Shown here: in pieces, positions 1 through 32,736 of the stretch | How positions within the stretch are numbered: position 1 is the first letter of the stretch | How the letters are laid out: each line of letters begins with the position of its first letter | DNA from: Heptranchias perlo | Taxonomy: Eukaryota | Direction: 5' to 3' | NCBI RefSeq assembly: GCF_035084215.1 | Contig: NC_090329.1 | Location: 62,372,001 to 62,436,000 of the forward strand | DNA: 64,000 nucleotides | Position numbers and translations under genes: made by a program | Notes under the pieces: model-generated | Seen by the model: the letters and a program-made list of their open reading frames with translations, nothing else | Databases searched by the model: none | What the model was told of the DNA's origin: nothing

Positions 1-405
1 ATGGTTTCTTGTTAATAGTAACTCACCCAATCCTCTCAAACCTTCAGGACCAACATAAAAATGAATAAGCATGCACAAGAAATCAAGCATTAGAGAAAAC
101 AGTGTGGTACTATTAGCAAGAAACCGTGGGGCAAAAATGGGATCAGTAACTACCAGTTGGTAATCAGTTCTCATACCCAGAATGCTTTCTTAATAGGTAT
201 TCACAATACAATATATTAGCTTATACATGCTATTAATAATTCCAACATAGCCATAGCTGTTCATTAGTTCTTTTCATACAGAGACTACATTAAATCATTA
301 GCATCAGCCAAAGCTACATTTAATGAACAGTAAAGTAAATTCATTTCTTAATAAAGTGATTGAAACAGAAAAAGCTTTACTGCATATAGTAAACAGAAAT
401 AAAAT

Positions 406-920
406 TTACTTGACATTGAAAACTGCATTTGTAAGTTCAGAACTTACTTTGGTTTGCAGCCATGGAGACGTTGAATAAATTGGAAATTGATTGTAACATT
501 TGGGTTCACAATCTTTAAATCTCTTCAGCTCCCCACTGATTTTATTATATTCTGCTTTTAGATATCGATGTTCATCTTTCAAATCAGAAATCTCTGTTTT
601 CAGTTTTTCATTGATTTGCTGCAGTGCCTCACACACAGCGGTCATCTGAACACCTTCACAGCCTGAATTAACTTTGAAGATATCGAGCAAAGTCTGCGCA
701 GCCTCAAACCGTGCTTTTTCATCATCACCCTCTTGATGATTCAGTGAGAAAGATGCTACAACTGATCCTTCCTTTTGAATTGTAGGACCAGCAAAAGGTA
801 CTTTGGTTCTTTTTGGAAGATCCTTCTGTTGTCTCTGGCCATACTTTTGTTTTGCCCGCTTGTGAAATGCCAAGACATTCTGGGGATAGTTAAACTGGTT
901 TCCACCATGTGAAGGCTGGC
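406..920 (-). CDS. Terminal coding exon of THAP11-like gene (linker, coiled coil, stop)
   Basis: Inside the 188-aa ORF 406..972; pyrimidine-rich acceptor TTTTCTTATTTCTCTTCAG|GC is phase 1, matching the THAP exon donor; heptad-like segment EALQQINEKLKTEISDLKDEHRYLKAEYNKISGELKRF; TAA stop at 408-406. Confidence 0.75.
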
Positions 921-2697
921 CTGAAGAGAAATAAGAAAACTTGCTGATTTTACACTTCATACCTGTCAGCAAAGGTATGAAACCATTTAATATGAAGAAA
1001 AACTATAGTTAACAGAAAAAAATGGTAAAATAACCAGGATGCAATTAACGTCCTTACTATACAGTGACAGTCTTTTCATTATCTATCTGAAAGTAATTTT
1101 AACGTTTCTTTCTTATACCCTTATTTTGAGGCAGTGTACTTTCCTCTTCAACCAGATGGTCCAAGCACTTCTTCACAGTTGCCACCAACACTGGTTGATA
1201 CAGAGCAACATGAGTTATGCTCCTGTGAGGTAGGATTGATTTCCACAGATTAACATTTTCCTTCTTCCCAGGAGCTCAGCCAACACGGATTTTACACCCA
1301 GATTCAAATAGCAATTAAGACTGTAATTCGAACCTGGGTCTCAGTAAACGCCAGGGCTTTAGAATTTTAATAGGGAAAAAGTTATTTATGTCTGATAAAT
1401 GGATAACAATGTGAAGTATCGTTATATTAATGGCACAATGCATGGTATTGTATTTAATTATAATTAAAGATTATTGATAATATACTGTAAATGGTCTAAT
1501 GTGACTACTCTCAACTGCAGGTTGTAGAACTGCTCCAAGAATGTAAGTACATTGAAAGTCTCATAATTCTCTATAATCTGAATTAGTTCTGGGAGAAAAC
1601 AATTAATTTGTAACAGATATTTTGAGTCACATTCAAATGAATCCAGTTACTTATATTACTCTGTCTACAATATGATACCTCAAAGATCAAGAGTCCTTCC
1701 CTCAGTGGAAATAACACAAGCCTGACTCTGTGAAGTAGCAGGATAGAGCAAAAAAAAAATGTTAACTTATTCTTGGCCACTCAAGAGTGATAACTGTCTG
1801 AGAAAGTATATGTGCACACAGAACCTGAAACTTATATGAATACAATTGCATATGTGGATTAGTAGCTATATAAATATATTGAATTTTTGCAGCAGAAATT
1901 AAATTTAAATGATTATGGAACACTGCAATCAAAAAAGATATTTTAAAATAATACAACAGAAAAATTATTTTTTTAAATAAAGAACTACTTTTTGTTCACA
2001 CAGAAGACCAACTGTTGCTCCACAATCTAAGTCATTACTGGGCAAATGACACCACCCTAGCTCTGATTACTGTAACGGGCATATCTGCTTATTTAACAGT
2101 GTAATGACACACATCAAAATGTTTTCACTGCTTTTTGGGTTAAATTTATGAATAATGTCAAAAGCTGAAAATACTGAGAGGCAGCACTGAAGGCTCAGTT
2201 GTAAACACACTGCCCAGTGTCATACTGAGCCATGTAGACCAGGAGGATCCAAGGTTAATTTTTTGATCTGCACATAATAATTTTTAGATAATGGGTCCAA
2301 TGTCTATAAATATATATTTGGTGAAACATATACCTTTATATGAATGAAAAGGACAAGTAGTCAAGTAGTGGAATATGGGTATGGAGGAGTTCTGAAGTCC
2401 TTTCCAGATCTACTTGGACGCTTCCAAATTCATCCTTGTGCTATAATTTAGGATTCAGAGAATGTGCATTTGGGATCCATTTTAGGCAGGTCTCAGCTCA
2501 TCTTTGCTCAAGCATAACAGCATTATGGTCATGAAAATTAAAACCAAAATTGGCCCAACAAAATAGAGCATTCACTTTCTCTCCAAGTCCTCCTCTCTTC
2601 ACTCTCCAGTACCTGGTCTTCCTGCCTCATTCTCGCACATCTCTCTTTCCTCCACAGTTTTCTGCTTCTGAATTGTGCTTGTACAAATCAGCAGCAC

Positions 2698-2810
2698 ATG
2701 GAGCAGTCAGCATGCATTAAAATTTCCTGCTCTCTGCAAAATTACCTCATCAATCACCACAGCTCCCATAGAATACTAAATTTGATTTTAATGTATGCTG
2801 ACTGTTCCAT
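2698..2810. repeat. Inverted repeat/hairpin (26-bp arms)
   Basis: atggagcagtcagcatgcattaaaat (2698-2723) pairs with attttaatgtatgctgactgttccat (2785-2810). Confidence 0.7.
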
Positions 2811-3263
2811 CATGCACTACTGCCTCTGCACACAAGTGTTAAGCAGGGAGCAGTACAGGTGCTGAAAGAGTGGCACTGATGACTCCAAAGCAGACAGGCA
2901 AGCAGGACTAGGTCAGAAGCAAGTGGGTGCACTCCCCAACAGTGAGTTTCAGAAACATCCACTCAAATGGTACAGGTGTAAGATGTTCACCGCTCCTTCC
3001 CTCCCACTCCACCCCCTCCCCCCCCCCCCCTCCACACCATTTGAACTCCCATACAGGGACCTAAATTTCTTTATACATGAGCATGTACGATAGGCTGATC
3101 ACAAGTGGGTCATCATACAAAATTACTACCCTCTACATGTCAAACATGTCTTTGGTGCCACTTGTGGTAAGACAGAAAAATAGCCTAATATGAGGCAAGA
3201 ACTTACACATAAAACCTATCTTTACACATGATGTGGAGATGCTGGTGATGGACTGGGGTTGAC

Positions 3264-3317
3264 AATTGTAAACACCAAGTTGGACTATAACTTGGTGTTG
3301 TAAAATTGTTTACAATT
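3264..3317 (+). mobile_element. Short Penelope-like terminal fragment, partly palindromic
   Basis: ggactataacttggtgttgtaaaattgtttaca is the reverse complement of sequence at about 22170-22202. Confidence 0.55.
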
Positions 3318-3826
3318 ATCTTTACACATGCAGTGTTAATCCTATTTATAGCTTGATGGCGTTGAGATTGGCTGGTGACTGAAAGCATTCATTCAGAGGT
3401 GACTAGCTTCAGCTTCAGTCATGCGTGCGAAACAGAGTAGCAGCGGGATGGGTATGCTTTCACTCTGTAATACGCAAGATATTGTATTTTTAGAATGACT
3501 AGAAATAAGACAGCTCTAAATGATGTCTTACTTAAAATTATGGAAACACTAACCATAAAAGGACAGTATAATTATTATTAGTGACTACTCCCACTGCAGT
3601 CATTGAACACATTTAGGCTATTGGCACCAATATGCCAGAGGAAGAATTCTACTTTTGATACTGTGTTTATATACTTCTTGTACAATACTCTTAATCTATC
3701 ATCTCTACTTGCTGTCATGAACACCAGTGACAGACTTATAACCATCAGACTTCATCATGGTCTTTGTCACATTTCAGGATCTTTTGGCTATTTTTCCATT
3801 AAAAAAGATTTGAAAAAATGTTGTGT

Positions 3827-4435
3827 TGTAAAGCCCACTATTTTCGTGAAAATAAAGGAAAAAGGGGATCCGAGATGGCAGGTAGTTAAGATGCTAATGA
3901 GCTAGCTTTGATGTTGATTCCTCATGGACTGCAAATAATAAGCAATTTATTAGCTCGTCTCAGTAATCGATAAACGTCCTACTCCCACTGTGTCAGAAGC
4001 TTTCTGATCACTTTCTGGGTGAGAACTGCCAGAAATAGAGAGAGAGACTGGCACTAACATAAGACAGCCTGGCTTTTGGAAACAGCTTGCTGCGGAGGCA
4101 ATCAGACTGAAAAAATCAGGCTCAGGAAAAGGAAGGAGATGGCAGGAAGAGGACATTCTTCTGTGAGCTGTAGTACGGAATGCAGACGAGTTACTCTGTT
4201 TGAGTTAAATAAGATGACCCATTGAAGTTGGAGATTATAGTGTGTTCATCAGCACCAAGATATGTTTTACCGATTGAACTAAGTAAATTCCATCATTATT
4301 GTTGCTCTCTGTGTTCACCTTATTGTGTAATAAAGCAGATTAATTATTCATATTGTATTGGCTCAGTTTGGAGAGATTGAAAAAGTTCACATGCGAAATA
4401 TATGAGTATCCAATCCAGAGAATGCTATTATTACA
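3827..4435 (+). mobile_element. Possible solo-LTR-like element
   Basis: TG...TTACA ends, internal AATAAA, 3' part resembles the reverse complement of 5317-5520; no target-site duplication found. Confidence 0.3.
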
Positions 4436-4489
4436 TCCCAGGTTATGTTATCAAACAAGTAAATATAGGGCAGTGTAAGTCAACTCCAA

Positions 4490-5234
4490 TTAATGTGTAC
4501 CTACCATGTGAATGGAAATTTCTGGTCTGAATTCAGCTTGAAGAGAAGGAAAGGATAGGAAAGTAAAGGATAAACAGCTTGTGATGGGTGAACTAGGTGT
4601 TTCAGTGGTGAACATTGTCCTTTCACCTCCGAGATGTGGACTTGAATAGTCATGTGATGACATTAGCTCTCTAGTCATGACTGCTGAAGGGAGCAACTGA
4701 GGCCACTAAACCCTAGAAGATATCTATTGGCAAATAACAGACTTACATGGCTCAAAATGTTCTCTTCCAACACAACCTAAGTTTGGAAGAACAAATATTT
4801 GTATTTGTACAGGTGAGTGCTTTTCCAGGTCAGGCATAATTTGGACCAGGTTCAAGGTAAGTTCCTCCAACAATGCCCAATAATGTATCTCAGCACCAAG
4901 GTGCTCATAGCAACACTTCTATTGCACTGTGACATTTTCATTTCACATACTGGCCATCCTTCAAGCTTCCGAATAACTGTGAATTTAGTTCCACAATATA
5001 TGCTATGAAACTGGGTTGATACACCCCAAATTCACTTTAGTTAACAACGTCACGACTACAGAGATAATGTCATCTCATCACATTCAAACCAAGATCTGAG
5101 GTGAAAGGACAATGTTCACCACTGAAACATCTAGTTCACTAATCACAAGCTGTTTATCCTTTACTTTCCCATCCTCTCCTCTTTAAGCTGAATTCAAACC
5201 AGGAATTTACATTCACATGGTAGGGACACTTTAA
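4490..5234. mobile_element. MITE/non-autonomous DNA transposon, TTAA-flanked (Kolobok/T2-like)
   Basis: Imperfect terminal inverted repeats of about 195 bp (4490-4685 vs 5041-5234), TTAA at both outer ends, no coding capacity. Confidence 0.75.
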
Positions 5235-6581
5235 TATTAAACATACTGTTACAAGTTTTGGATCTGCCTTAGATATTCTCTCTCCATAGGCAGTCTGTGC
5301 ATCATATGAGCAGCAGTGTAATCATACGGCCCAATATCTAATTATACTATAGCGTAACTCTGGAGTGTAGTAATCTGATCTGTCTTTTGCATGCACCCTC
5401 ATGCACTTCTCCAATCTTTCTGAAGGTGGATTGAGAAACTTTAGTGAGACAAGACCAGATATGAATGGTTAAGCTGCTTTATTTTAGACAGTAAGTGAAT
5501 GTACAGAGTAACAGATGTAATCAAATCTCATCTTGTTTCAATTAATTACAGAACCTTCAAGACAAATAATAAAATTACACCACACCATCCCAATTAGCAA
5601 GTTTGCTTAACTTTTCCCTGGTCATCCTTCTGATCCTGTCCGGTTCCGGGAACAGCAAGTTTCCCCTTGCTAGACCAGGCTTCCTCCCCAGACCTAGCTG
5701 GCTGACCCACTGCCCATCTGTTCCCAGCCTGTGAGAAGGCAGTCCATATGACTTCTTCCCCGTTCAATGATTCGCAAGTAGACCTGGCAATAAAACCAGC
5801 TACCTCTCCTCTCTCATTTGCTATTCTCAAAATGAATAAGGGCCAGTCCAGCTTAATGGGCCTGGGATGAGACAACTGACCTTCACTGTCTCTATCCGAA
5901 GTGGAGAGTGATCCATGACAGTCCACAAACTGGCTCGTCTAACTTTAATACACAGGTTCAATGCCTGAAGCCTGTGCCCTTTTTCTCAACCTGTGTCAAT
6001 TCACTGTTTGATATGTACCTGTCTCAAGTATTGAATCACCAAATAACAGAATCCTTACAACAAGCTGTCACACAGATTGGTTAAAATGCTGTCGAAGGCA
6101 CTTATTTTGAGAAGATAGTGTAATCAGAGAAGTCGATGAAAGATGAGTGAAAATGCAGAGGTTGCAAGAGTACAGAGAAACTTTAAGTTTAAGAACTCCA
6201 CTAATGAATAAGTCAGTCTGTCACTTGTATGCAAGAGTTAAGTTTCTGAGAACAGAAGCAAGGTTTGTGGTACCAAGATTGAACAGACATCAGAAGGCGG
6301 CCAAACTATTAGGACATCAGATGGATGATGCATCGCGCTGACATCCCGAGACAGACCTGAGTATCCTAGAAGGAGGGGAGAGCACCAAACCTACTACACC
6401 AACTTGGAAGGGATGAGGTGTAAGATTAGGAATCTTTGCTAAAGCTGCAAGCTCATCGCCAATAAGATGAACTAACTGGACTTTTAATGTATCTAATAGA
6501 CTGTTAACTTTCAGATATATACAGAGCCTAATCTAAAATAACCTTATTGACTTTATATCAATCTTGGACATTGAGTACAAT

Positions 6582-7157
6582 TAGGAACATAGGAACAGGA
6601 GTAGGCCATTCAGCCCCTCATGCCTGCTCCGCCATTTGATAAGATCATGGCTGATCTGTGATCTAACTCCATATACCTGCCTTTGGCCCATATCCCTTAA
6701 TACCTTTGGTTGCCAAAAAGCTATCTATCTCACATTTAAATTTAGCAATTGAGCTAGTATCAATTGCCATTTGGGGAAGAGAGTTCCAAACTTCTACCAC
6801 CCTTTGTGTGTAGAAATGTTTTCTAATCTCGCTCCTGAAAGGTCTGGCTCTAACTTTTAGACTGTGCCCCCTACTCCTAGAATCCCCAACCAGCGGAAAT
6901 AGTTTCTCTCTATCCACCCTATCTGTTCCCCTTAACATCCTATAAACTTCGATCAGATCACCCTTTAACCTTCTAAACTCTAGAGAATACAACCTCAATT
7001 TGTGTAATCTCTCCTCGTAACTTAACCCTTGAAGTCTGGGTATCATTCTAGCAAACCTACTCTGCACTCCCTCCAAGGCCAATATGTCCTTCCGAAGGTG
7101 CGGTGCCCAGAACTGCTCACAGTACTCCAGGTGCGGTCTAACCAGGGTTTTGTATAG
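6582..7157 (-). mobile_element. CR1 LINE 3' fragment (young copy)
   Basis: ORF 6663..7175 LYKTLVRPHLEYCEQFWAPHLRKDI...FYTQRVVEVWNSLP is the CR1 ORF2 C-terminus; typical 3' tail. Confidence 0.92.
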
Positions 7158-7366
7158 TTCGAGCCCAGCTGGCACTGAGTTACTGTGATACGAATGAACC
7201 TCAGATGTTAATTATATCAGTTAATAATGTCTAGCTAAGTACCTTAAATACTCTTACTGATCAAGATTCTGATAATTGTATTATAAGTACGTTAATAAAG
7301 AAATGTTAGTTCATGATTTCATGATCTGACTTCCTATCTGATGGCTGGCAAGGAGAGGTTAGCTTA

Positions 7367-7809
7367 AAAAAGAACTTACATTTATATAATGCTTTTCAAG
7401 ACCTTAGAAAGTTCCAAGACGCATCACAGCCAATGAAGTATTTTTGAAGTGATGTTACTGTTATAATGTAGGCAAGCCGACCAGCCAATTTGCAAACAGC
7501 AATAAGATAAATGACCAGATGATCTGCTTTAGTAATGTTGGTTGAGGGATAAATGTTGGCCAGGACACTGCCAGAATGCCCCTGCTCTTTGAATAGTGCC
7601 GTGGGATCTTTTACATCCACCCGAGAGGGCAAACAGGGTCTCAGTTTAACATCTTATCCAAAAGACGGCACCTCCAGCAATGCAGCATTCCCTCAGTCCT
7701 GCACTGAAGTGTCAGCCTAGATTATGTGCTCAATCTCTGGTGTAGGACTTTAAATCACAACCTTCAGACCCAGAGGTGCAAGTGCTACCACTGAGCCAGG
7801 GCTGACACC
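7367..7809 (-). mobile_element. tRNA-derived DeuSINE (SacSINE1/AmnSINE-like)
   Basis: Minus strand starts GGTGTCAGCCCTGGCTCAGTGGTAGCAC (A-box-like); central gggtggatgtaaaagatcccacggcactattc resembles the Deu domain; L2-type 3' tail. Confidence 0.75.
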
Positions 7810-8555
7810 TCATTCACTCAGTAGATTACATGTACCCTATCAGGCGGTTAAGATGGTTCAAGTGAGATACCCGCAATCTGCGTAACAAGCTTAAGCTGCT
7901 ATTTTCGACTATAAATGTGGACATAGGAACTAATAATAGATAAAAGTTGACACAGGAAATGTGACAAAAAATAACAGGAAATCAAGTAAAGCAGATAGGA
8001 AATGCATACAAATGTAAGATTTTTAATGCATTTATAGATTTTTAACGTATTCTATCAAATTTGACTCAGTTTCTATGACCCTCATAGTTGAATAGCTCAC
8101 AACTCAGGTTTAGACATGAAGGCCTCGGTATTAACCAGCACCCCCACCCCCGCCCAGCCCCCCAAGATGGGCAAGGGTCGGGGGGGGGGGGGGCGTTTAA
8201 AGAGTTAAATACGTGGAACCCGTCTCCAACACACATGCACACGCCTGCTGTCTTTTTTACGATGGCGGGTTTCGTGGCATCCCGCGTTTAGAGGCAAGAC
8301 GCTTAATTAACATTTAAATCGGGCTCCCACAGTGCAATTGGAAGCCCAATTTAAAATTTACTGCTGCTGCGCAGGTTTCCCAGGGGTCGGGAAACCCGGC
8401 AGTGGAAGGGAGAGAGGCGGGAGCTGCCGGCTCCGCAAGGAAGTGCCTTTTTCAGCACTCCTTGTGGGCTAGGACGAGCAGGCGTGAACCCCCCGACCCC
8501 TCAAGGAAGCCTTCGGCCTCCCCAGCCCCAGTCGCCAACCTATCACTCACAGCCC

Positions 8556-8995
8556 TCCCGATCGCGGCCTCCCTCTCTCCCTCCCGATCCCGATCGCGGC
8601 CTCCCTCTCCCGATCGCGGCCTCTCTCCCTCCCTCCCTCCCTCTCCCGATCGCGGCCTCTCTCCCTCCCTCCCTCTCCCGATCGCGGCCTCCCTCTCTCC
8701 CTCCCGATCTCGATCTCCCTCTCTCCCTCCCGATCTCGATCGCGGCCTCCCTCTCTCCCTCCCGATCTCGATCGCGGCCTCCCTCTCTCCCTCCCCCTCC
8801 CGATCGCGGCTTCTCTCTTCCTCCCNNNNNNNNNNNNNNNNNNNNNNNNNNNNNNNNNNNNNNNNNNNNNNNNNNNNNNNNNNNNNNNNNNNNNNNNNNN
8901 NNNNNNNNNNNNNNNNNNNNNNNNNNNNNNNNNNNNNNNNNNNNNNNNNNNNNNNNNNNNNNNNNNNNNNNNNTCTCTCCATCCCCCTCCCGATT
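8556..8995. repeat. Pyrimidine-rich minisatellite (ccgatcgcggcctccctctctccctc-type units)
   Basis: Repeated CCCGATCGCGGCCTCCCTCT units running into and out of the N block. Confidence 0.9.
8826..8973. other. Assembly gap (148 N)
   Basis: Run of N inside the minisatellite. Confidence 0.99.
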
Positions 8996-9982
8996 GCCGT
9001 GGACCATCTCCAAGAGTCCGTGGCTGCGGCCTCCTGTCGCTGGTGTTCCCTCCACGGTCACCAATTCAATAGGAACTTTCCAAAGGGAATTGGGTATATA
9101 CTTGAAAAGGGAAAAATTGCCAGCACAGCCACAGTGGGTCAAATGGCCTTCTTCTGTGGTATAAGATTCTATTTTCTCTCTTCTCCCCAATTCATGTGTG
9201 TCTTCTAATTAAAATATTTTTAGGCATCTCTAGATTTCTACCTCGATCTGTCAGATCCTCTTACCCACAACCTGTCCCTGAACAGCTGCAATATGTAACC
9301 AATAGATTGCTGGAATTCTTTTGACAGTAATATATTTTTAAAAATTGATTTCTGCCTAGTTTTCATTATCTTGGATATCTATTAATATGGTATTTCAGCA
9401 TACAAAGCTAAAATATGCAATTGAACACAGAGTCTTTTTCCAAAAGATCAAGCGCAATCTGGACAATGGTGGAATTTTCCCAATTTACAAAATATCTGGA
9501 GGGAAGTGAACTCTGAACTTTAGTTTCAAAGAAGATAAAACACTGATTTCATTTTCCCTGGGCCCTCAAGCCTAATTCCAAGATATTTATTTACTATTAT
9601 AATTTTCAATCCTAACTGAATTTTATAATAGGAGCTACTCCACTCAGCTGCCAGGCATTCAGTACACAGCCTAAGAGATGTTCTGTTCAACTGCGTCAGA
9701 TGCTAATACCCTATGTATAGTCAATATGTGGAGTTGAATTTGCTCCATTTGGCTCATAGACATTTAGATTGAATCTCTACCTTCTGATAAATCCTAACTG
9801 GAGGCAATTCATCAAGGTTTTCCAGTAATTCTGAAGTGACATCCCTGATTGCTGACAAAATAATTCTGGTCAAGCAATATGGAGCAATGAAAGCAGGGGG
9901 AATAATGCTAGAAAATGATCTAACAATTAAACCAGTGTGAACATTTCTGGCTGGCATCTGACAGAGAGACATAAAAACTTAC

Positions 9983-10021
9983 AGGGCAAGCTGGATACCA
10001 GAATTAAGGTGGCAGAATTTA
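9983..10021 (-). CDS. Candidate 39-nt micro-exon of THAP11-like gene
   Basis: TCTTTTTAG|TAAATTCTGCC...TTGCCCT|GTAAGT; symmetric phase 1-1; open frame VNSATLILVSSLP. Confidence 0.45.
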
Positions 10022-10967
10022 CTAAAAAGACACAATGAATCAGATGTCAATAAAATATTGCCATCAATAGTAGTATAAAACTGATCAGTTTGCAACTCAT
10101 GCCAATATCCTTGAGCTCTGCTGTACTCAGAAAGCTTTGTATAACAAAGCACAGGACTATTAGCACTCACTAAAAATAGACCTGACACGGTACAGTATAT
10201 GCTGCCACTGCAGTAATAATTTTTGTTCATTTTAAACTCCACCTCACAAGTTTCATTAAATAACTAGGGCAGTGTGATTCAATGTGCTGTGCCACTAGTG
10301 GCAGAATGTGCAACTGAGCTTAAGTGGCCTCAGGAGAATTCCTGTCAAGGATGTGCTGGGAGGGTGGTGTGAGGGGGGGATGGTGGTGGTGGATATTTCT
10401 AAATCTTTTCTTAATACCTCTTGTTCTTGTGATTTCTTGCCTGACATGTGCACACAGAGAGGAAAAAGACAGAGAGCAAAGTATCCCAGGCCGCTGGTCA
10501 ACTATAGTCACCTATTCAATTGGCAATGGAACATATTGCTTTCTTGTCCTCTCAGTGAGGGAATGACATGATGCAGGAAGCTAAAATTAAATCAGCTGTA
10601 TCCTAACCTCATTTAAAAACAGACTATCAAACCACAACGTCATCACAAAATACTCAATAAAAACTAGTGAATTATAGAACACAGTTACACAACTGAAGAG
10701 TTCAGATTACACTGTGAACAAAAAATATTGCAGCTGATATGATTGAAATCTCCAGATCTGTGCAATTAATTTACCAGATGCAACAAACATGCCTGACAGT
10801 GGGAGACTGCACCTCAAGACAAAATGAATCACTTTTTTAAAAAAAAACTGAACTTTCCACTTGGTGATATTGTGTTGCTCAATTCAGCACGGATTAAACT
10901 TTTGTCTTGACCTCTGGCGTCCATTTACTGCAAGGCTGGAGTGAAGTGCCTGTGCCTGTGCCTGTAC

Positions 10968-11283
10968 CTGGGTGTGTTGGATCCCTCGCACCGGGCAGCA
11001 GCAGCCTGGGCTGCTCCTTCCTGCGGAATCCCTCGACCTTCACGGGGAAGACGATGGGCACATTGTTCATGTAGGTCTTCTTCCCACCGGGGAAGTGAGC
11101 GTCGCAGACTTTGTGATGGGCTTTGGGCCGCCACACGCTGAATTTCCTCTCGTCCAAACGCGACAGGTTTCTGATCCAAACGCCTCGGAGCTTCTCGTCT
11201 TTGGGGAAGACGTGAAAGGAGAGCTCCTTGTTCTTGAGCGTGTTGTTGAAACAGCCCGGGACGCAGCAGTAGGTTCCCACCAT
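10968..11283 (-). CDS. First coding exon of THAP11/Ronin-like THAP zinc-finger gene
   Basis: MVGTYCCVPGCFNN...FHVFPKD...W...KVCDAHFPGGKKTY...VPIVFP shows the C2CH signature, conserved P/W/F and an AVPTIF-like box; Kozak atcATGg; donor CAG|GTACAG, phase 1. Confidence 0.9.
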
Positions 11284-11339
11284 GATCACCAAGGAGCTGG
11301 AGGAGGAGAGGAGGAGGAGCTGGAGGGAGGGGGAGGGGG

Positions 11340-11470
11340 GGGGGGGAACTCACATCCCGGCCTGCACCGCGCCCACACAGCCGGGCATGCGCACTGAGCG
11401 CCGGGGGGCGGGCTCGGGCATCATGGGAGCTGTAGTTTTTTGTTCCTCGCTGACAGGCCAGAAGTGAAAC
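11340..11470 (-). promoter_or_regulatory. CpG-rich promoter of THAP gene with ZNF143/THAP11 (SBS2), NRF1-like and GC-box motifs
   Basis: Minus-strand ACTACAGCTCCCATGATGCCC at 11416-11436; GCATGCGCA at 11385-11393; GGGGGCGGG near 11404-11412. Confidence 0.8.
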
Positions 11471-12059
11471 TTCAATTAGTCCAAATGTTTCCTTTTTTAA
11501 AAAAAAATATTTAAAAAATCATACATAATTTCATCTGGTAATGAGGTCATCGTCTTTAAGTGATCTGCTGACATCCACAGATAAAAAGAAAAACTGTTGG
11601 AAATTACAAACAAAAGATGATGGAAATGACAGCAAAGCAGTCAGGAATTTATAGGGACAGAGGAATGGCTGAGACCCTTCTTCACAATTTAACTCTCAGA
11701 TGTTGACCAACTGCTGTGCATTTCCACCATTTTCTGTTAATCTCCATGTTTGCCTGGATCACAAAACTATTCATTTACAATTTTTGGTTCAAGTTTTATG
11801 AATAGAATGTGCTGCCATGAGTCAAGCGTAAGCATAAATGTATATACCCAGGCAGTGCTTATCATTAACCATTCTATCACACATTGGTAAACTTAAATTG
11901 TGAATCTTTATCATATTTATTTTGTTTGGTTATAAAATATCCTCTATTTTAAACTGTTGCTCCACTTAGGAAATCAAAATATAAAACATAATATGAAAAT
12001 GATCACAAAGCTTGATGTTTTAGATTGCTGTAATTAGCTTATATATTGTTGAGGACAAA

Positions 12060-14105
12060 GACAACAGTATACTGAACAGGTGGAAAGAATAAAATATGCA
12101 AATGGACTAGAAGCTGAGGATAAGCACAAAATAGGGAATATTCTGAATGAATATTTCCTCCAAGTATTCACAAGGGAAGAAATAAGCAACATCCCACCCC
12201 AAACAAAGATAATCAATGACTTCATTGTATATGAGATGGAATTGCTAGGGAGGCCATATGGGATCAAAACAAATACCCAGATTTAGATGGTATTTATACC
12301 AGAGAGACTAGGGGAGAGATTTGTACGGCATTGGCAATCATTATTATGGACACTGGGGAGGTATCATTAGATTGAAAACTAATGTGGTGCCCACATTCAA
12401 AAAGTGGGACAAAACAAACACAGGCAAATGAAAACCCAATTGTCATAAGAACATAAGTACATAAGAAATAGGAGCAGGAGTAGTAGGCCATTCAATAAGA
12501 TCATGGCTGATCTTCTACCTCAACTCCACTTTCTCACCATATCCCCATATCCCTTGATTCCCTGAGTCCAATAATCTATCGACTCAGTCTTGAATATACT
12601 CAATGACTGAGCATCCACAGCCCTCTGGAGTAGAGAATTCCAAAGAATCACAACCCTCTGAGTGAAGAAATGTTCCAACAGTTCGGTCCTAAATGGCCAA
12701 CCTCTTATCTTGAGACTATGTCCCCTAGTTCTAGACTCTCCAGCCAGGAGAAACAGCCTCTCAGCATCGACGCTATCAAGACCTCTAAGAATTTTATAGG
12801 TTTCAATGAGATCACCTCTCATTCTTCTAAAATCCAGAGAATATAGGCCCATTCTTCTCAATCTGTCCTCATAGGACAACCTTCTCATCCCAGAAATCAA
12901 TCTAGTGAACCTTCATTGCACCCCCTCTAAGGCAAGTATAACCTTCTTTAGGCAAGGAGACCAAAACCGTACACAGTTCTCCAGGTGTGGTCTCATCAGA
13001 GCCCTATATAATTGCAAGACCTCCTTACTCTTATACTCCAACCCCCTTGCAATAAAGGCGAACATACCATTTGCCTTCCTTACTGTACCTGCATGTTAAC
13101 TTTCTGTGATTCGCATACAAAGACACCCAAATCCCTCTGAATACCAACATTGCTTGGTCTCTCACCTTTTAAAAAATCTTCCTATTTTCTATTCTTCCTA
13201 CCAAAGTGAATAACCTCACATTTCCCCACATTATACTCCATCTGCCACCTTCTCGCCCACTCACTTAACCTGTTTATATCCCTTTGCAGCCTCTTTGTGT
13301 CCTCCTCACAGCTTACTTTCCCACCTAGCTTTGTATCATCAGCAAACTTGAATACATTACACTTGGTCCTTCATTAATCATTAATATAGATTGTAAATAT
13401 CTGAGGCCCAAGCTCTGATCCTTGCGGCACCCCACTAGTTACAGCCTTCCACCCCGAAAATGACTCGTTTAATCCTACTCTCTGTTTTCTGTCCGTTAAA
13501 CATTCCTCAATCCATGCAAATATATTATCCCCAATCCCATGAGCCCTAATCTTGTGTAACAATCTCTTGTGTGGCACCTTATCAAATGCCTTTTGAAAAT
13601 TCAAATATACTACATCCACTGATTCCCCCTTATCTACCCTGCTAGTTACACCCTCAAAAAACTTACTTTAATTCCTTGTAAAATAATGGAATTGATTATT
13701 AGAAGTAAACTTGAGAATCATCTGCACAACAATAACCTAGTTAACAGCAGTGAGTATGGATCTAGACAGGGCAGATCCTGTCTGACCATCCTCTTCTTTG
13801 AGGAAGTGACAACCCAATGAATGGTGGGAAGCCCTATGATGTGGTGTACCTCAACTTGGTATGGATAAACTTAACCCAGAATATCACTAGGGGATACAGG
13901 TTTAAAGTAGTAAAAGCTCATTTTAGGACTTATATAAGAAAATTCTTCTTCAGACAAAGAGTGATCAACATGTGGAAAAACCCTGAAATCATTTATGAAA
14001 CAACTGTATGCTACAATGGAGGTATGTTAGGATCTCTATGGATGGATGAATCGAATGGGCCAAATGACTTTTCTCATCTGAAATTAATTATCTTGTGATC
14101 TTATG
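12060..14105 (+). mobile_element. Old degraded CR1 LINE, interrupted at 12444-13661
   Basis: ILNEYFLQVFTREE motif before the insertion; LTLIPCKIMELIIRSKLENHL...GRSCLT resumes after it; 3' remnant FFRQRVINMW. Confidence 0.75.
12444..13661 (-). mobile_element. CR1 LINE, 5'-truncated, nested in older CR1
   Basis: ORFs 13374..13619 (YLNFQKAFDKVPH, SGVPQGS) and 12520..12900; CATAAGAA tail. Confidence 0.92.
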
Positions 14106-20679: not shown

Positions 20680-20937
20680 AGCTAGGCCATTAAGGGGTGA
20701 TGTCTGGAAGCACTTCTTCACACAAAGAGTTGTGGAAATCTGGAACTCCCTGCCCCAAAGACCTGTTGAGGCTCGGCCAATGGAAAATTTCAAAACTGAG
20801 ATTGATAGATTTTTTTTAGGCAAGGGTATGACGGGTTACTGAACTAAGGGGGAATAGATGGAGTTAAGATACAGATCAGCCATGATCTAATTGAATGGCG
20901 GAACAGGCTCGAGAGACTGAAAGGTCTACTCCTGTTC
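20680..20937 (+). mobile_element. CR1 3' fragment abutting CDC5L promoter
   Basis: cacttcttcacacaaagagttgtggaaatctggaactccct and tail ctactcctgttcc. Confidence 0.85.
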
Positions 20938-20999
20938 CTAGAGGAAAATCCACCGGTGCAGGTTAGGGTGGGGGTGATGGATGTACCTGGGTGCAGTGA

Positions 21000-21330
21000 C
21001 AGTCAGCCTGCCTAGAGGGAGCACACGCCCTGGGAGTGAGGGCGGCGGCGGCGGCATGTGGCCGTCTTGCTGCAGGGGAAGCGGAGGTCGCTCTTTGTTG
21101 GGCCTCGGTTGTTGGTGTGTGCGCAGGGCCGAAGCCTGCGTCCCCCCTGGGCCGGGATCCAGCTGCTGAGAAACCCAACGGGTTCCCCCTTTTCTTCTCG
21201 CTCTGCTGTCGGAGGATCTCCTCCGGCCCGTCGCCAAGCGCCAGGATGCCGCGGATAATGATCAAGGGAGGAGTCTGGAGGAACACGGAGGTGAGCGGCC
21301 GCTGGCGGGCCTGCGCCACACGGGCCGGGG
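21000..21330 (+). promoter_or_regulatory. CDC5L: CDC5L CpG island / promoter and 5' UTR
   Basis: GC- and CpG-rich stretch with (GGC)n immediately upstream of the ATG. Confidence 0.7.
21246..21290 (+). CDS. CDC5L: CDC5L exon 1
   Basis: MPRIMIKGGVWRNTE, donor GAG|GTGAGC. Confidence 0.97.
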
Positions 21331-21331
21331 C

Positions 21332-22085
21332 GGGGCCGGGGACCCGGGCCACTGACCCTGTCCTCGGGCCGGGGACCCGGGCCACTGACCCTGTCCTGGG
21401 GCCGGGGACCCGGGCCGCTGTCCGCTGTCCTGGGGCCGGGGACCCGGGCCGCTGTCCCCTGTCCTGGGGCCGGGGACCCGGGCCGCTGTCCCCTGTCCTG
21501 GGGCCGGGGACCCGGGCCGCTGTCCCCTGTCCTGGGGCCGGGGACCCGGGCCGCTGTCCCCTGTCCTGGGGCCGGGGACCCGGGCCGCTGTCCGCTGTCC
21601 TGGGGCCGGGGACCCGGGCCGCTGTCCGCTGTCCTGGGGCCGGGGACCCGGGCCGCTGTCCGCTGTCCTGGGGCCGGGGACCCGGGCCGCTGTCCGCTGT
21701 CCTGGGGCCGGGGACCCGGGCCGCTGTCCGCTGTCCTGGGGCCGGGGACCCGGGCCGCTGTCCCCTGTCCTGGGGCCGGGGACCCGGGCCGCTGTCCGCT
21801 GTCCCCTGTCCTGGGGCCGGGGACCCGGGCCGCTGTCCGCTGTCCCCTGTCCTGGGGCCGGGGACCCGGGCCGCTGTCCGCTGTCCTTTGTCCTGGGGCC
21901 GGGGACCCGGGCCGCTGTCCGCTGTCCTTTGTCCTGGGGCCGGGGACCCGGGCCGCTGTCCGCTGTCCTTTGTCCTGGGGCCGGGGACCCGGGCCGCTGT
22001 CCGCTGTCCTTTGTCCTGGGGCCGGGGACCCGGGCCGCTGTCCGCTGTCCTTTGTCCTGGGGCCGGGGACCCGGGCCGCTGTCCC
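21332..22085. repeat. GC-rich minisatellite, 34-bp and 41-bp units, about 21 copies
   Basis: Unit cctggggccggggacccgggccgctgtccgctgt; later copies gain 7 bp (cccctgt or cctttgt). Confidence 0.97.
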
Positions 22086-22164
22086 TGCCATGGGGCTGTG
22101 TTTAACTATCGAGTGGTATTTTTAAGGGCTTCCTGTCTTTAAGGAAGAGGGTGACCGGATCATG

Positions 22165-22272
22165 AGATTTGTAAACAATTTTACAACACCAAGTTATAGT
22201 CCAGCAATTTTATTTTAAATTCACAAGCTTTCGGAGGCTACCTCCTTCCTCAGGTGAACGATGTGGAAATCA
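22165..22272 (-). mobile_element. Penelope-like element terminal fragment
   Basis: Hammerhead motif followed on the minus strand by AATAAA and ggactataacttggtgttgtaaaattgtttaca; related copy at 3264. Confidence 0.65.
22220..22258 (-). ncRNA. Minimal type I hammerhead ribozyme motif
   Basis: UUCAC-CUGAGGA-A-GGAGG-UAG-CCUCC-GAAA-GC-UU-GUGAA: core CUGANGA/GAAA, stems I and II pair perfectly, palindromic AAGCUU in place of stem III. Confidence 0.7.
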
Positions 22273-30982: not shown

Positions 30983-31219
<237 letters not shown>

Positions 31220-32608: not shown

Positions 32609-32736
32609 ATCCAGAAACTAAACCAGCCAGGCCTGATCCAGTTGATATGGATGAAGGTACATCTCGGTTAAAATTAGTAATGTTATAAGGGTGGCTCTGT
32701 AGAGCTTAATTTCGAGGTACAAAATTGTCACTCTAA
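32609..32736 (+). repeat. 128-bp duplicate of CDC5L exon 4 3' end, donor and intron start
   Basis: Matches 33696-33823 with two substitutions. Confidence 0.95.

Follow-up and report, generated by a model that had tools for sequence, protein, structure and literature searches.

A stretch of 64,000 nucleotides from Heptranchias perlo (contig NC_090329.1; here called the window) carries on its minus strand coding exons 1 and 2 of a spliced fusion gene of chondrichthyans, which joins a THAP domain, a leucine zipper and a DONSON-like core. The product, P0001, is a 649-residue protein automatically named 'protein downstream neighbor of Son-like', with the domain order THAP11-like zinc finger, AAxxL block, leucine zipper, DONSON-like core. 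An initial annotation, made from the letters of the window, had proposed a small protein of a THAP domain and a coiled coil. The two exons are instead the N-terminal 263 residues of the fusion, and its C-terminal 386 residues are a paralogue of DONSON. From the established splicing, domain order, paralogy, contact residues lost or kept and long-term conservation we lean slightly towards a DONSON copy from genome duplication that captured a THAP exon and would now act as a dimeric, sequence-specific transcription regulator, not as a helicase-assembly factor.

Across sharks, rays, skates and chimaera, 23 species have a named copy of the fusion gene, and in 21 of them the THAP domain and the DONSON core stand in one model; two paralogue models begin inside exon 2. 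Exon 1 compared with longer proteins gave 19 matches, 12 of them at 84–100% identity: 11 named chondrichthyan proteins that carry the domain family of canonical DONSON, and one 246-residue model without exon 2. Exon 2 alone was compared with proteins of 93–298 residues only, where none of 23 candidates scored. The restriction to a lineage that the initial annotation suspected is borne out, in that the copies among the matches seen are chondrichthyan only; no bony-vertebrate copy occurs among the 120 of 578 core matches listed or among the THAP matches checked. There is one copy in the window, and one such protein is named for H. perlo. Annotated isoforms (P0008, P0283, P0287, P0303, P0004 and P0011) leave out or cut short stretches of the DONSON core or of the zipper. 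The open-access literature that we searched yielded no description of a DONSON paralogue or of a THAP-DONSON fusion; the proteins themselves are already public under the automatic 'DONSON-like' name.

Exon structure and domain order

Coding exon 1 (10968..11283, minus strand, 316 nt) encodes a C2CH zinc finger of the THAP11 type (C6, C11, C60 and H63; residues 1–82) and a variable linker. It is the intact THAP exon that had been noticed at the outset, and it scores 55 bits (E 1.4e-14) against Pfam THAP, where the cut-off is 23.9 bits. The THAP family is defined by a single N-terminal C2CH module of 80–90 residues (PMC13631171); the fusion has such a module, with the four zinc ligands and the Pfam score above cut-off. 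Identity over exon 1 averages 94% against 18 paralogue rows and is 85% against chimaera. Intron 1 (921..10967, minus strand, 10,047 nt, GT..AG, phase 1) is repeat-rich and includes a gap of 148 N at 8826–8973. Coding exon 2 (448..920, minus strand, 473 nt) encodes residues 106–263, with its acceptor at 920 and its donor end at 448. Intron 2 starts with the donor GTAAGT (447–442) and takes up the rest of the window (1..447, minus strand); the exons of the DONSON-like core (residues 264–649) lie beyond, and tblastn with that core found no match inside the window. Exon 1 joined to 448–920 translates exactly as residues 1–263 of P0001.

Contigs from four coded sequencing runs (X1, X3, X5 and X8) were compared with positions 1–12000 of the window. 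We guess these runs to be RNA, none being recorded as such; X1 and X3 are one sample, and X8 comes from a second study and a second organism. Single contigs of X1, X3 and X8, hence three of the four runs and two studies, cross directly from 10968 to 920 with no inserted letters (mismatches 0 in X1 and 1 in X3), which confirms the predicted junction; a contig of X5 terminates at 923. Exon 1 is covered by X1, X3 and X8, with X1 extending to 11291. On the other side, the exon-2 pieces of all four runs begin at 447, not at 406. The X1 contig continues for 2,125 additional bases past 447, and the loose end at that point is identical in X1 and X8 and translates as SAESSPVQP, residues 265–273 of P0001. 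Because the contigs leave the window at 447 and the loose end is the next exon, exon 2 is 920–448 and the last 13 codons of the initial reading frame are intronic. The bin 1–400 has zero depth in all four runs, and the contigs of two further runs, X10 and X13 (share 0.06), include none on this locus.

The product predicted earlier had 276 residues and ended at a stop at 406. That such a stand-alone THAP and coiled-coil protein is the main product is largely refuted, and we hold it most improbable: the frame does stay open for 13 codons beyond the donor, and a skate open reading frame (ORF), P0315, stops at the same place after a tail in which 8 of 13 residues agree, but 406–446 is uncovered by any contig of the four runs, the intron flank upstream in P0315 shows similarity of about the same degree (8 of 17), which speaks for slowly evolving intron edges, and the THAP domain and DONSON core share one model in the 21 species above. 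A 39-nt micro-exon, which would have made 289 residues, fares no better, since the three joined contigs have no inserted letters and P0001 has no such insert. Intron 1 holds seven candidate 39-nt AG..GT segments, and an alternative donor at 10929 would likewise add 13 residues; neither any of the seven nor the 10929 donor is used in the joined contigs.

Some pieces include intron sequence. P0315 itself consists of exon 2 with both intron flanks, and a short X5 contig (894–1035) spans the exon-2 acceptor and upstream intron; each is a retained-intron or a genomic piece.

Within exon 2, residues 156–196 (649..771, minus strand) form a block with a putative Sin3-type AAxxL motif at 179–183. Its mean identity is 93% (95% against chimaera), so that this block and the THAP domain (94%) are the most conserved parts, and 36 of the 37 models with a THAP domain keep the 10-residue motif bearing AAxxL intact. 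The coiled coil of the initial annotation is present as a heptad repeat at about residues 198–242 (511..645, minus strand), of the leucine-zipper type, with L205, L212, L219, L226, I233 and F240 at heptad spacing. The tetrapeptide EHRY (222–225) lies inside the zipper with H223 in a core position; the pattern [DE]HxY, known as the HCF-1 motif (PMC13631171), is found in 34 of the 37 models. As had been stated, there is no polyQ tract.

The core is recognized by several routes. Residues 257–647 of P0001 match Xenopus DONSON (8q6o, chain 8q6o_R) with E 8e-74, and P0001 matches THAP11 with E 3e-21. A core-only structural model of the C-terminal part, of low confidence (predicted local distance difference test, pLDDT, 49.7), was used for a single fold search, in which DONSON/DNSN-1 chains were the only three Foldseek matches at E <= 0.001 (best 7.8e-15). 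The full-length AlphaFold2 model (pLDDT 36) was not used for fold claims. Searches of the ESM Atlas returned generic THAP clusters for the whole protein and scores below 0.85 for residues 106–263.

Origins of the DONSON-like core and the THAP exon

Residues 264–649 as query gave 578 matches, of which 120 were listed, 11 at 74–100% identity and 109 at 35–41%. Among those listed, the closer set comprises 10 named chondrichthyan proteins and one from a skate cluster, and the more distant set the canonical DONSONs of gnathostomes. On a different chromosome (83.5 Mb versus 137.9 Mb) the same species has a canonical DONSON that bears the GYSP motif (P0317). The P0001 core is 83–84% identical to three paralogues that include the chimaera (shark to chimaera 83%), and 44–45% identical to five canonical DONSONs (shark 45%; frog, sturgeon, chicken and macaque 44–45%), which are 71–81% identical among themselves. 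An unrooted tree of 22 rows places paralogue and canonical DONSON on either side of a branch that is 2.6 changes per column long (support 100/100), and branches within each group are short. On this tree, the history of the paralogue reads as rapid change followed by constraint again. In the second organism 10 of the 12 coding differences listed are synonymous. Sharks and chimaeras separated about 400 million years ago, and this second DONSON copy has been kept since before that split.

Its position suggests where the copy came from. In the lamprey the RunxB locus is linked to Son, Donson and Cdc5l, while in gnathostomes Son and Donson lie at Runx1 and Cdc5l at Runx2 (Nah et al., PMC4236176); these authors ascribe the Runx loci to whole-genome duplication. 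The Runx-Clic-Rcan paralogy and the link of Supt3h to Runx2 are concordant (PMC533870, PMC3974841), and PMC533870 also places CDC5L in the Runx2 region. Since Son, Donson and Cdc5l share one lamprey Runx locus, the DONSON copy next to CDC5L is likely an ohnologue left by whole-genome duplication. The paralogue does adjoin CDC5L; RUNX2 itself is outside the window. A quite unlikely alternative is a duplication confined to chondrichthyans, with the copy placed beside CDC5L by chance. It would account for the lack of a bony-vertebrate copy among the matches examined, and the DONSON tree, which has neither cyclostome nor invertebrate DONSON, is unrooted and leaves the duplication undated, which counts against the older origin. 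However, Donson and Cdc5l are already linked at lamprey RunxB (PMC4236176), and the paralogue is no nearer to shark DONSON (45%) than to that of frog, sturgeon, chicken or macaque (44–45%). If the ohnologue origin holds, the Runx2 block is marked as the sister of the Son-Donson-Runx1 block, and the gene clearly exemplifies an ohnologue that was saved when it captured a transposase-type exon.

The THAP domain belongs to the THAP11 type, as the initial annotation had read from its pattern: exon 1 finds human THAP11 (2lau, E 7e-23) as its best match in PDB, followed by THAP2 (6.6e-5). With THAP11/Ronin it has in common the THAP subtype (over 89 residues it is 51% identical to coelacanth THAP11), a coiled coil and [DE]HxY. 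The gene is nevertheless not an ordinary THAP11 orthologue. In a careful THAP tree (37 rows by 85 columns, the rows picked from a quick tree of 99 rows) the two stand in separate starred clades: the fusion groups with a 'THAP11-like' protein of Callorhinchus (98/93), and the THAP11 clade (98/98) excludes it. Similarity to THAP11 stops after residue 88, so the C-terminus is unlike that of THAP11, as the initial annotation said, and the fusion gene has several exons and is joined to DONSON. In THAP11, moreover, the HCF-1 motif precedes a C-terminal coil with which the protein ends, whereas the fusion continues into the DONSON core. The initial annotation had left a choice between a sister of THAP11 and an independent domestication. 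A single clade of THAP11 and the fusion THAP, with transposases left outside, is not rejected by the approximately unbiased (AU) test (p = 0.468 on the same 37 rows by 85 columns), which does not tell the two alternatives apart.

The Callorhinchus protein (XP_042198073/4; P0021 and P0278) has the sister THAP domain, 56% identical and with the first 11 residues the same, but it is a stand-alone THAP protein of 207–227 residues with DHxY and a coiled coil, encoded on another scaffold and with no DONSON part. P0021 was flagged by the tree tool for skewed composition. This gene is a possible donor, or a sibling, of the captured THAP exon.

Kinship with the DNA-binding N-termini of transposons, also suspected at the outset, was found among close THAP relatives: the nearest non-vertebrate ones carry HTH_Tnp_4/DDE_Tnp_4 (91 selected proteins were scanned, many of them fragments). 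One metagenome locus, L015, has a transposase of the THAP-HTH_Tnp_4-DDE_Tnp_4 type (2–1411) and a convergent YqaJ ORF (1789–2712). A transposase with YqaJ is the layout of ISL2EU elements, which belong to the PHIS superfamily; no PHIS elements are reported in sharks (PMC4482050). The fusion shares the THAP subtype that is common to the THAP-HTH_Tnp_4-DDE_Tnp_4 proteins, and differs from ISL2EU in being a conserved host gene that lacks HTH and DDE domains as well as a YqaJ ORF and shows no convincing terminal repeats. No DDE domain is found in P0001 and no transposase body in the window, where tblastn with two transposases matches only the THAP exon, in agreement with the catalytic domain having been called absent; the 18 short inverted pairs at 9000–14000 include no convincing terminal repeat. 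By its relatives, the THAP exon is likely transposon-derived.

The same comparisons touch Ronin itself. The THAP domain, DHxY and coiled coil of THAP11/Ronin (P0013, P0034 and P0278) align with the N-terminal half of transposases (P0061 and P0067), and THAP11/Ronin nests among THAP-HTH_Tnp_4-DDE_Tnp_4 transposases in both THAP trees. Ronin may have arisen by domestication of an ISL2EU N-terminus and not from the P element; we found no earlier report of such an origin in our literature searches.

SETMAR and similar genes are fusions of host and transposase parts, and C. elegans CTBP-1 is reportedly a THAP-CtBP fusion. Domain fusions between host proteins and transposases are a known kind (PMC10027918). 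Like them, the present gene joins a DNA-binding domain of transposon type to a host domain; unlike them, its host partner is the core of a replication-initiation factor that lacks the replisome contacts.

Replisome contacts and proposed function

DONSON is studied as an essential factor in helicase assembly. We mapped the residues to which Lim et al. (PMC10801813) and Cvetkovic et al. (PMC7616792) assign roles in DONSON (Xenopus numbering) over 19 paralogue and 8 canonical rows. The GINS contact Y8 has no counterpart in the paralogue, and the TOPBP1 contact N430 is T in 19 of 19 paralogue rows. D374, E377, W381 and E384 of the acidic helix that binds MCM3 are kept in none of the 19; correspondingly, all 110 canonical proteins contain F.WL.E, while none of the 37 paralogue models contains an acidic-FSWL pattern. 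S437 is replaced by H in 18 rows and by Y in one, and about 50 C-terminal residues of DONSON are absent. The POLE2 motif RNPF (N67 contact) has no match in the paralogue (p 0.59–0.95 in four proteins), and a remnant of that motif was rejected on this ground. Two residues of the dimer interface could be mapped: W234 is kept in all 19 rows and M463 is L in all 19.

Compared with DONSON/DNSN-1 (PDB 8q6o and 8ouw), then, the paralogue shares a globular core at 44–45% identity, with W234 kept and the fold supported by sequence and by the low-confidence model. It differs at the N-terminus, where DONSON has a tail that binds GINS and POLE2 and the fusion has the THAP domain, AAxxL block and zipper, and in being without N430 for TOPBP1, the MCM3 helix, S437 and the C-terminal 50 or so residues. 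Mutants of Y8, N430 or the MCM3 helix each cripple formation of the helicase made of Cdc45, MCM and GINS (CMG; PMC10801813, PMC7616792), so the paralogue is, to judge from these residues, unlikely to do the job of DONSON alone.

In the reading that we slightly favour, the THAP domain would bind promoter DNA, and the zipper and DONSON core would pair two chains so that two THAP domains could read a bipartite site. The AAxxL block would recruit Sin3/HDAC, making the protein most likely a repressor; AAxxL domains bind Sin3A and depend on it (PMC9890238). Such a protein could not be expected to deliver GINS to MCM.

Several points weigh against this reading. The alignment is poor over the MCM3 loop and the N-terminal region, so that the losses there are losses of motifs, and the dimer interface is judged from the two mapped residues only; further interface residues are given in supplementary figures of PMC10801813 and PMC7616792. 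AAxxL is a short and common motif, and Klaus et al. (PMC9890238) report it to be generally no more conserved than its flanks. With its histidine in a core position of the zipper, the HCF-1 motif has to be counted doubtful: it lies inside the zipper and not before it as in THAP11, which makes the usual cofactor route of THAP proteins doubtful too. Finally, identity stays at 83% over the entire DONSON core. A plain dimer scaffold would seem to require less, which hints that a partner has been retained.

A fairly unlikely alternative makes the protein a DNA-tethered modulator of replication initiation. It would pair with canonical DONSON as a heterodimer, using the dimer face that it has kept, and at THAP sites it would either deliver a half-active complex of DONSON, GINS and TOPBP1 or serve as a dominant-negative damper. 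In favour of this, W234 is invariant, the PWLQLFPR around it is nearly identical in both paralogues, both genes occur in one species, the core is strongly conserved, and DONSON is described as an obligate dimer (PMC7616792). Yet the zipper would favour homodimers, the cores are just 45% identical, and TOPBP1 binds at the dimer interface (PMC10801813) and N430 has been lost. A complex prediction for the paralogue core with the shark DONSON core scored 0.00 with the partner fold uncertain, and is evidence neither way. The bolder form, in which the chimera, paired with DONSON as a heterodimer, would tether or titrate at promoter motifs the machinery that loads GINS, we consider improbable; if true, sharks and rays would have a direct link from DNA recognition by a transcription factor to the firing of origins.

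A replisome contact may survive in worn form. Residues 114–127 (856..897, minus strand) are the best match in the protein to a profile of 20 canonical GINS-binding motifs, and the best in 15 of 19 paralogue rows, aligning with F12, P15, I18, L19 and L21 of DONSON. The match is weak, with a profile score of 15.7 versus 53.5 for canonical motifs and a shuffle p of 0.074 over the whole protein (0.019 over residues 83–280, a range picked after the fact), and the segment is just 50% identical in chimaera. This resemblance would fit an exon 2 that came from the N-terminus of DONSON with the THAP exon added upstream, but it is only a hint of that. It also bears on an alternative that we regard as distinctly improbable, a replisome or fork factor with a remodelled surface, in which 114–127 is the GINS contact and the THAP domain merely a chromatin anchor. 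Beyond the weakness of the match and its low identity in chimaera, there is no Y8, and nothing is left of the MCM3 helix, mutation of which cripples the assembly of CMG (PMC7616792, PMC10801813).

Whatever its role, the protein has shed the mapped replisome contacts, retained the core and gained a DNA-binding domain of transposon type. It is a natural separation-of-function variant whose conserved core points to surfaces of DONSON with a use outside CMG assembly, and it could be studied in the Xenopus egg-extract assays already in use for DONSON.

Promoter region, CDC5L and other features of the window

An exact motif of the M4/Ronin type lies at 11424..11436 (minus strand), about 140 bp upstream of the ATG. 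It is the sole exact match among seven with at most one mismatch in the 64 kb. The M4 consensus is described as bound by THAP11 (PMC5006282). Motifs of this type are common in vertebrate promoters. Through this site the gene may be controlled by THAP11/ZNF143 or by the protein that it encodes.

The neighbour is CDC5L, whose first coding exon (21246..21290, plus strand) was identified by its translation and GT donor; a later exon at 31058–31219 matches CDC5L with E 5e-33. The initial annotation had the two genes head-to-head. The divergent orientation holds, but their ATGs are 9,963 bp apart and each gene has its own CpG-rich segment, 10801–11400 for the THAP gene and 20801–22200 for CDC5L. A bidirectional promoter common to both was rejected on the spacing of about 10 kb and these separate segments. 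A GC-rich tandem repeat occupies the start of CDC5L intron 1 (21300–22090). The CDC5L exon with the KPARPDP segment occurs twice, at 32620 and 33707, about 1.1 kb apart and with near-identical downstream flanks, from either a local duplication or an assembly artefact.

High-copy fragments at 6584–7210 and 7500–7800 (intron 1) and at 12520–13670 (intergenic) have very deep contig cover and pieces of reverse-transcriptase-like ORFs; we take them to resemble long or short interspersed nuclear elements (LINE/SINE).

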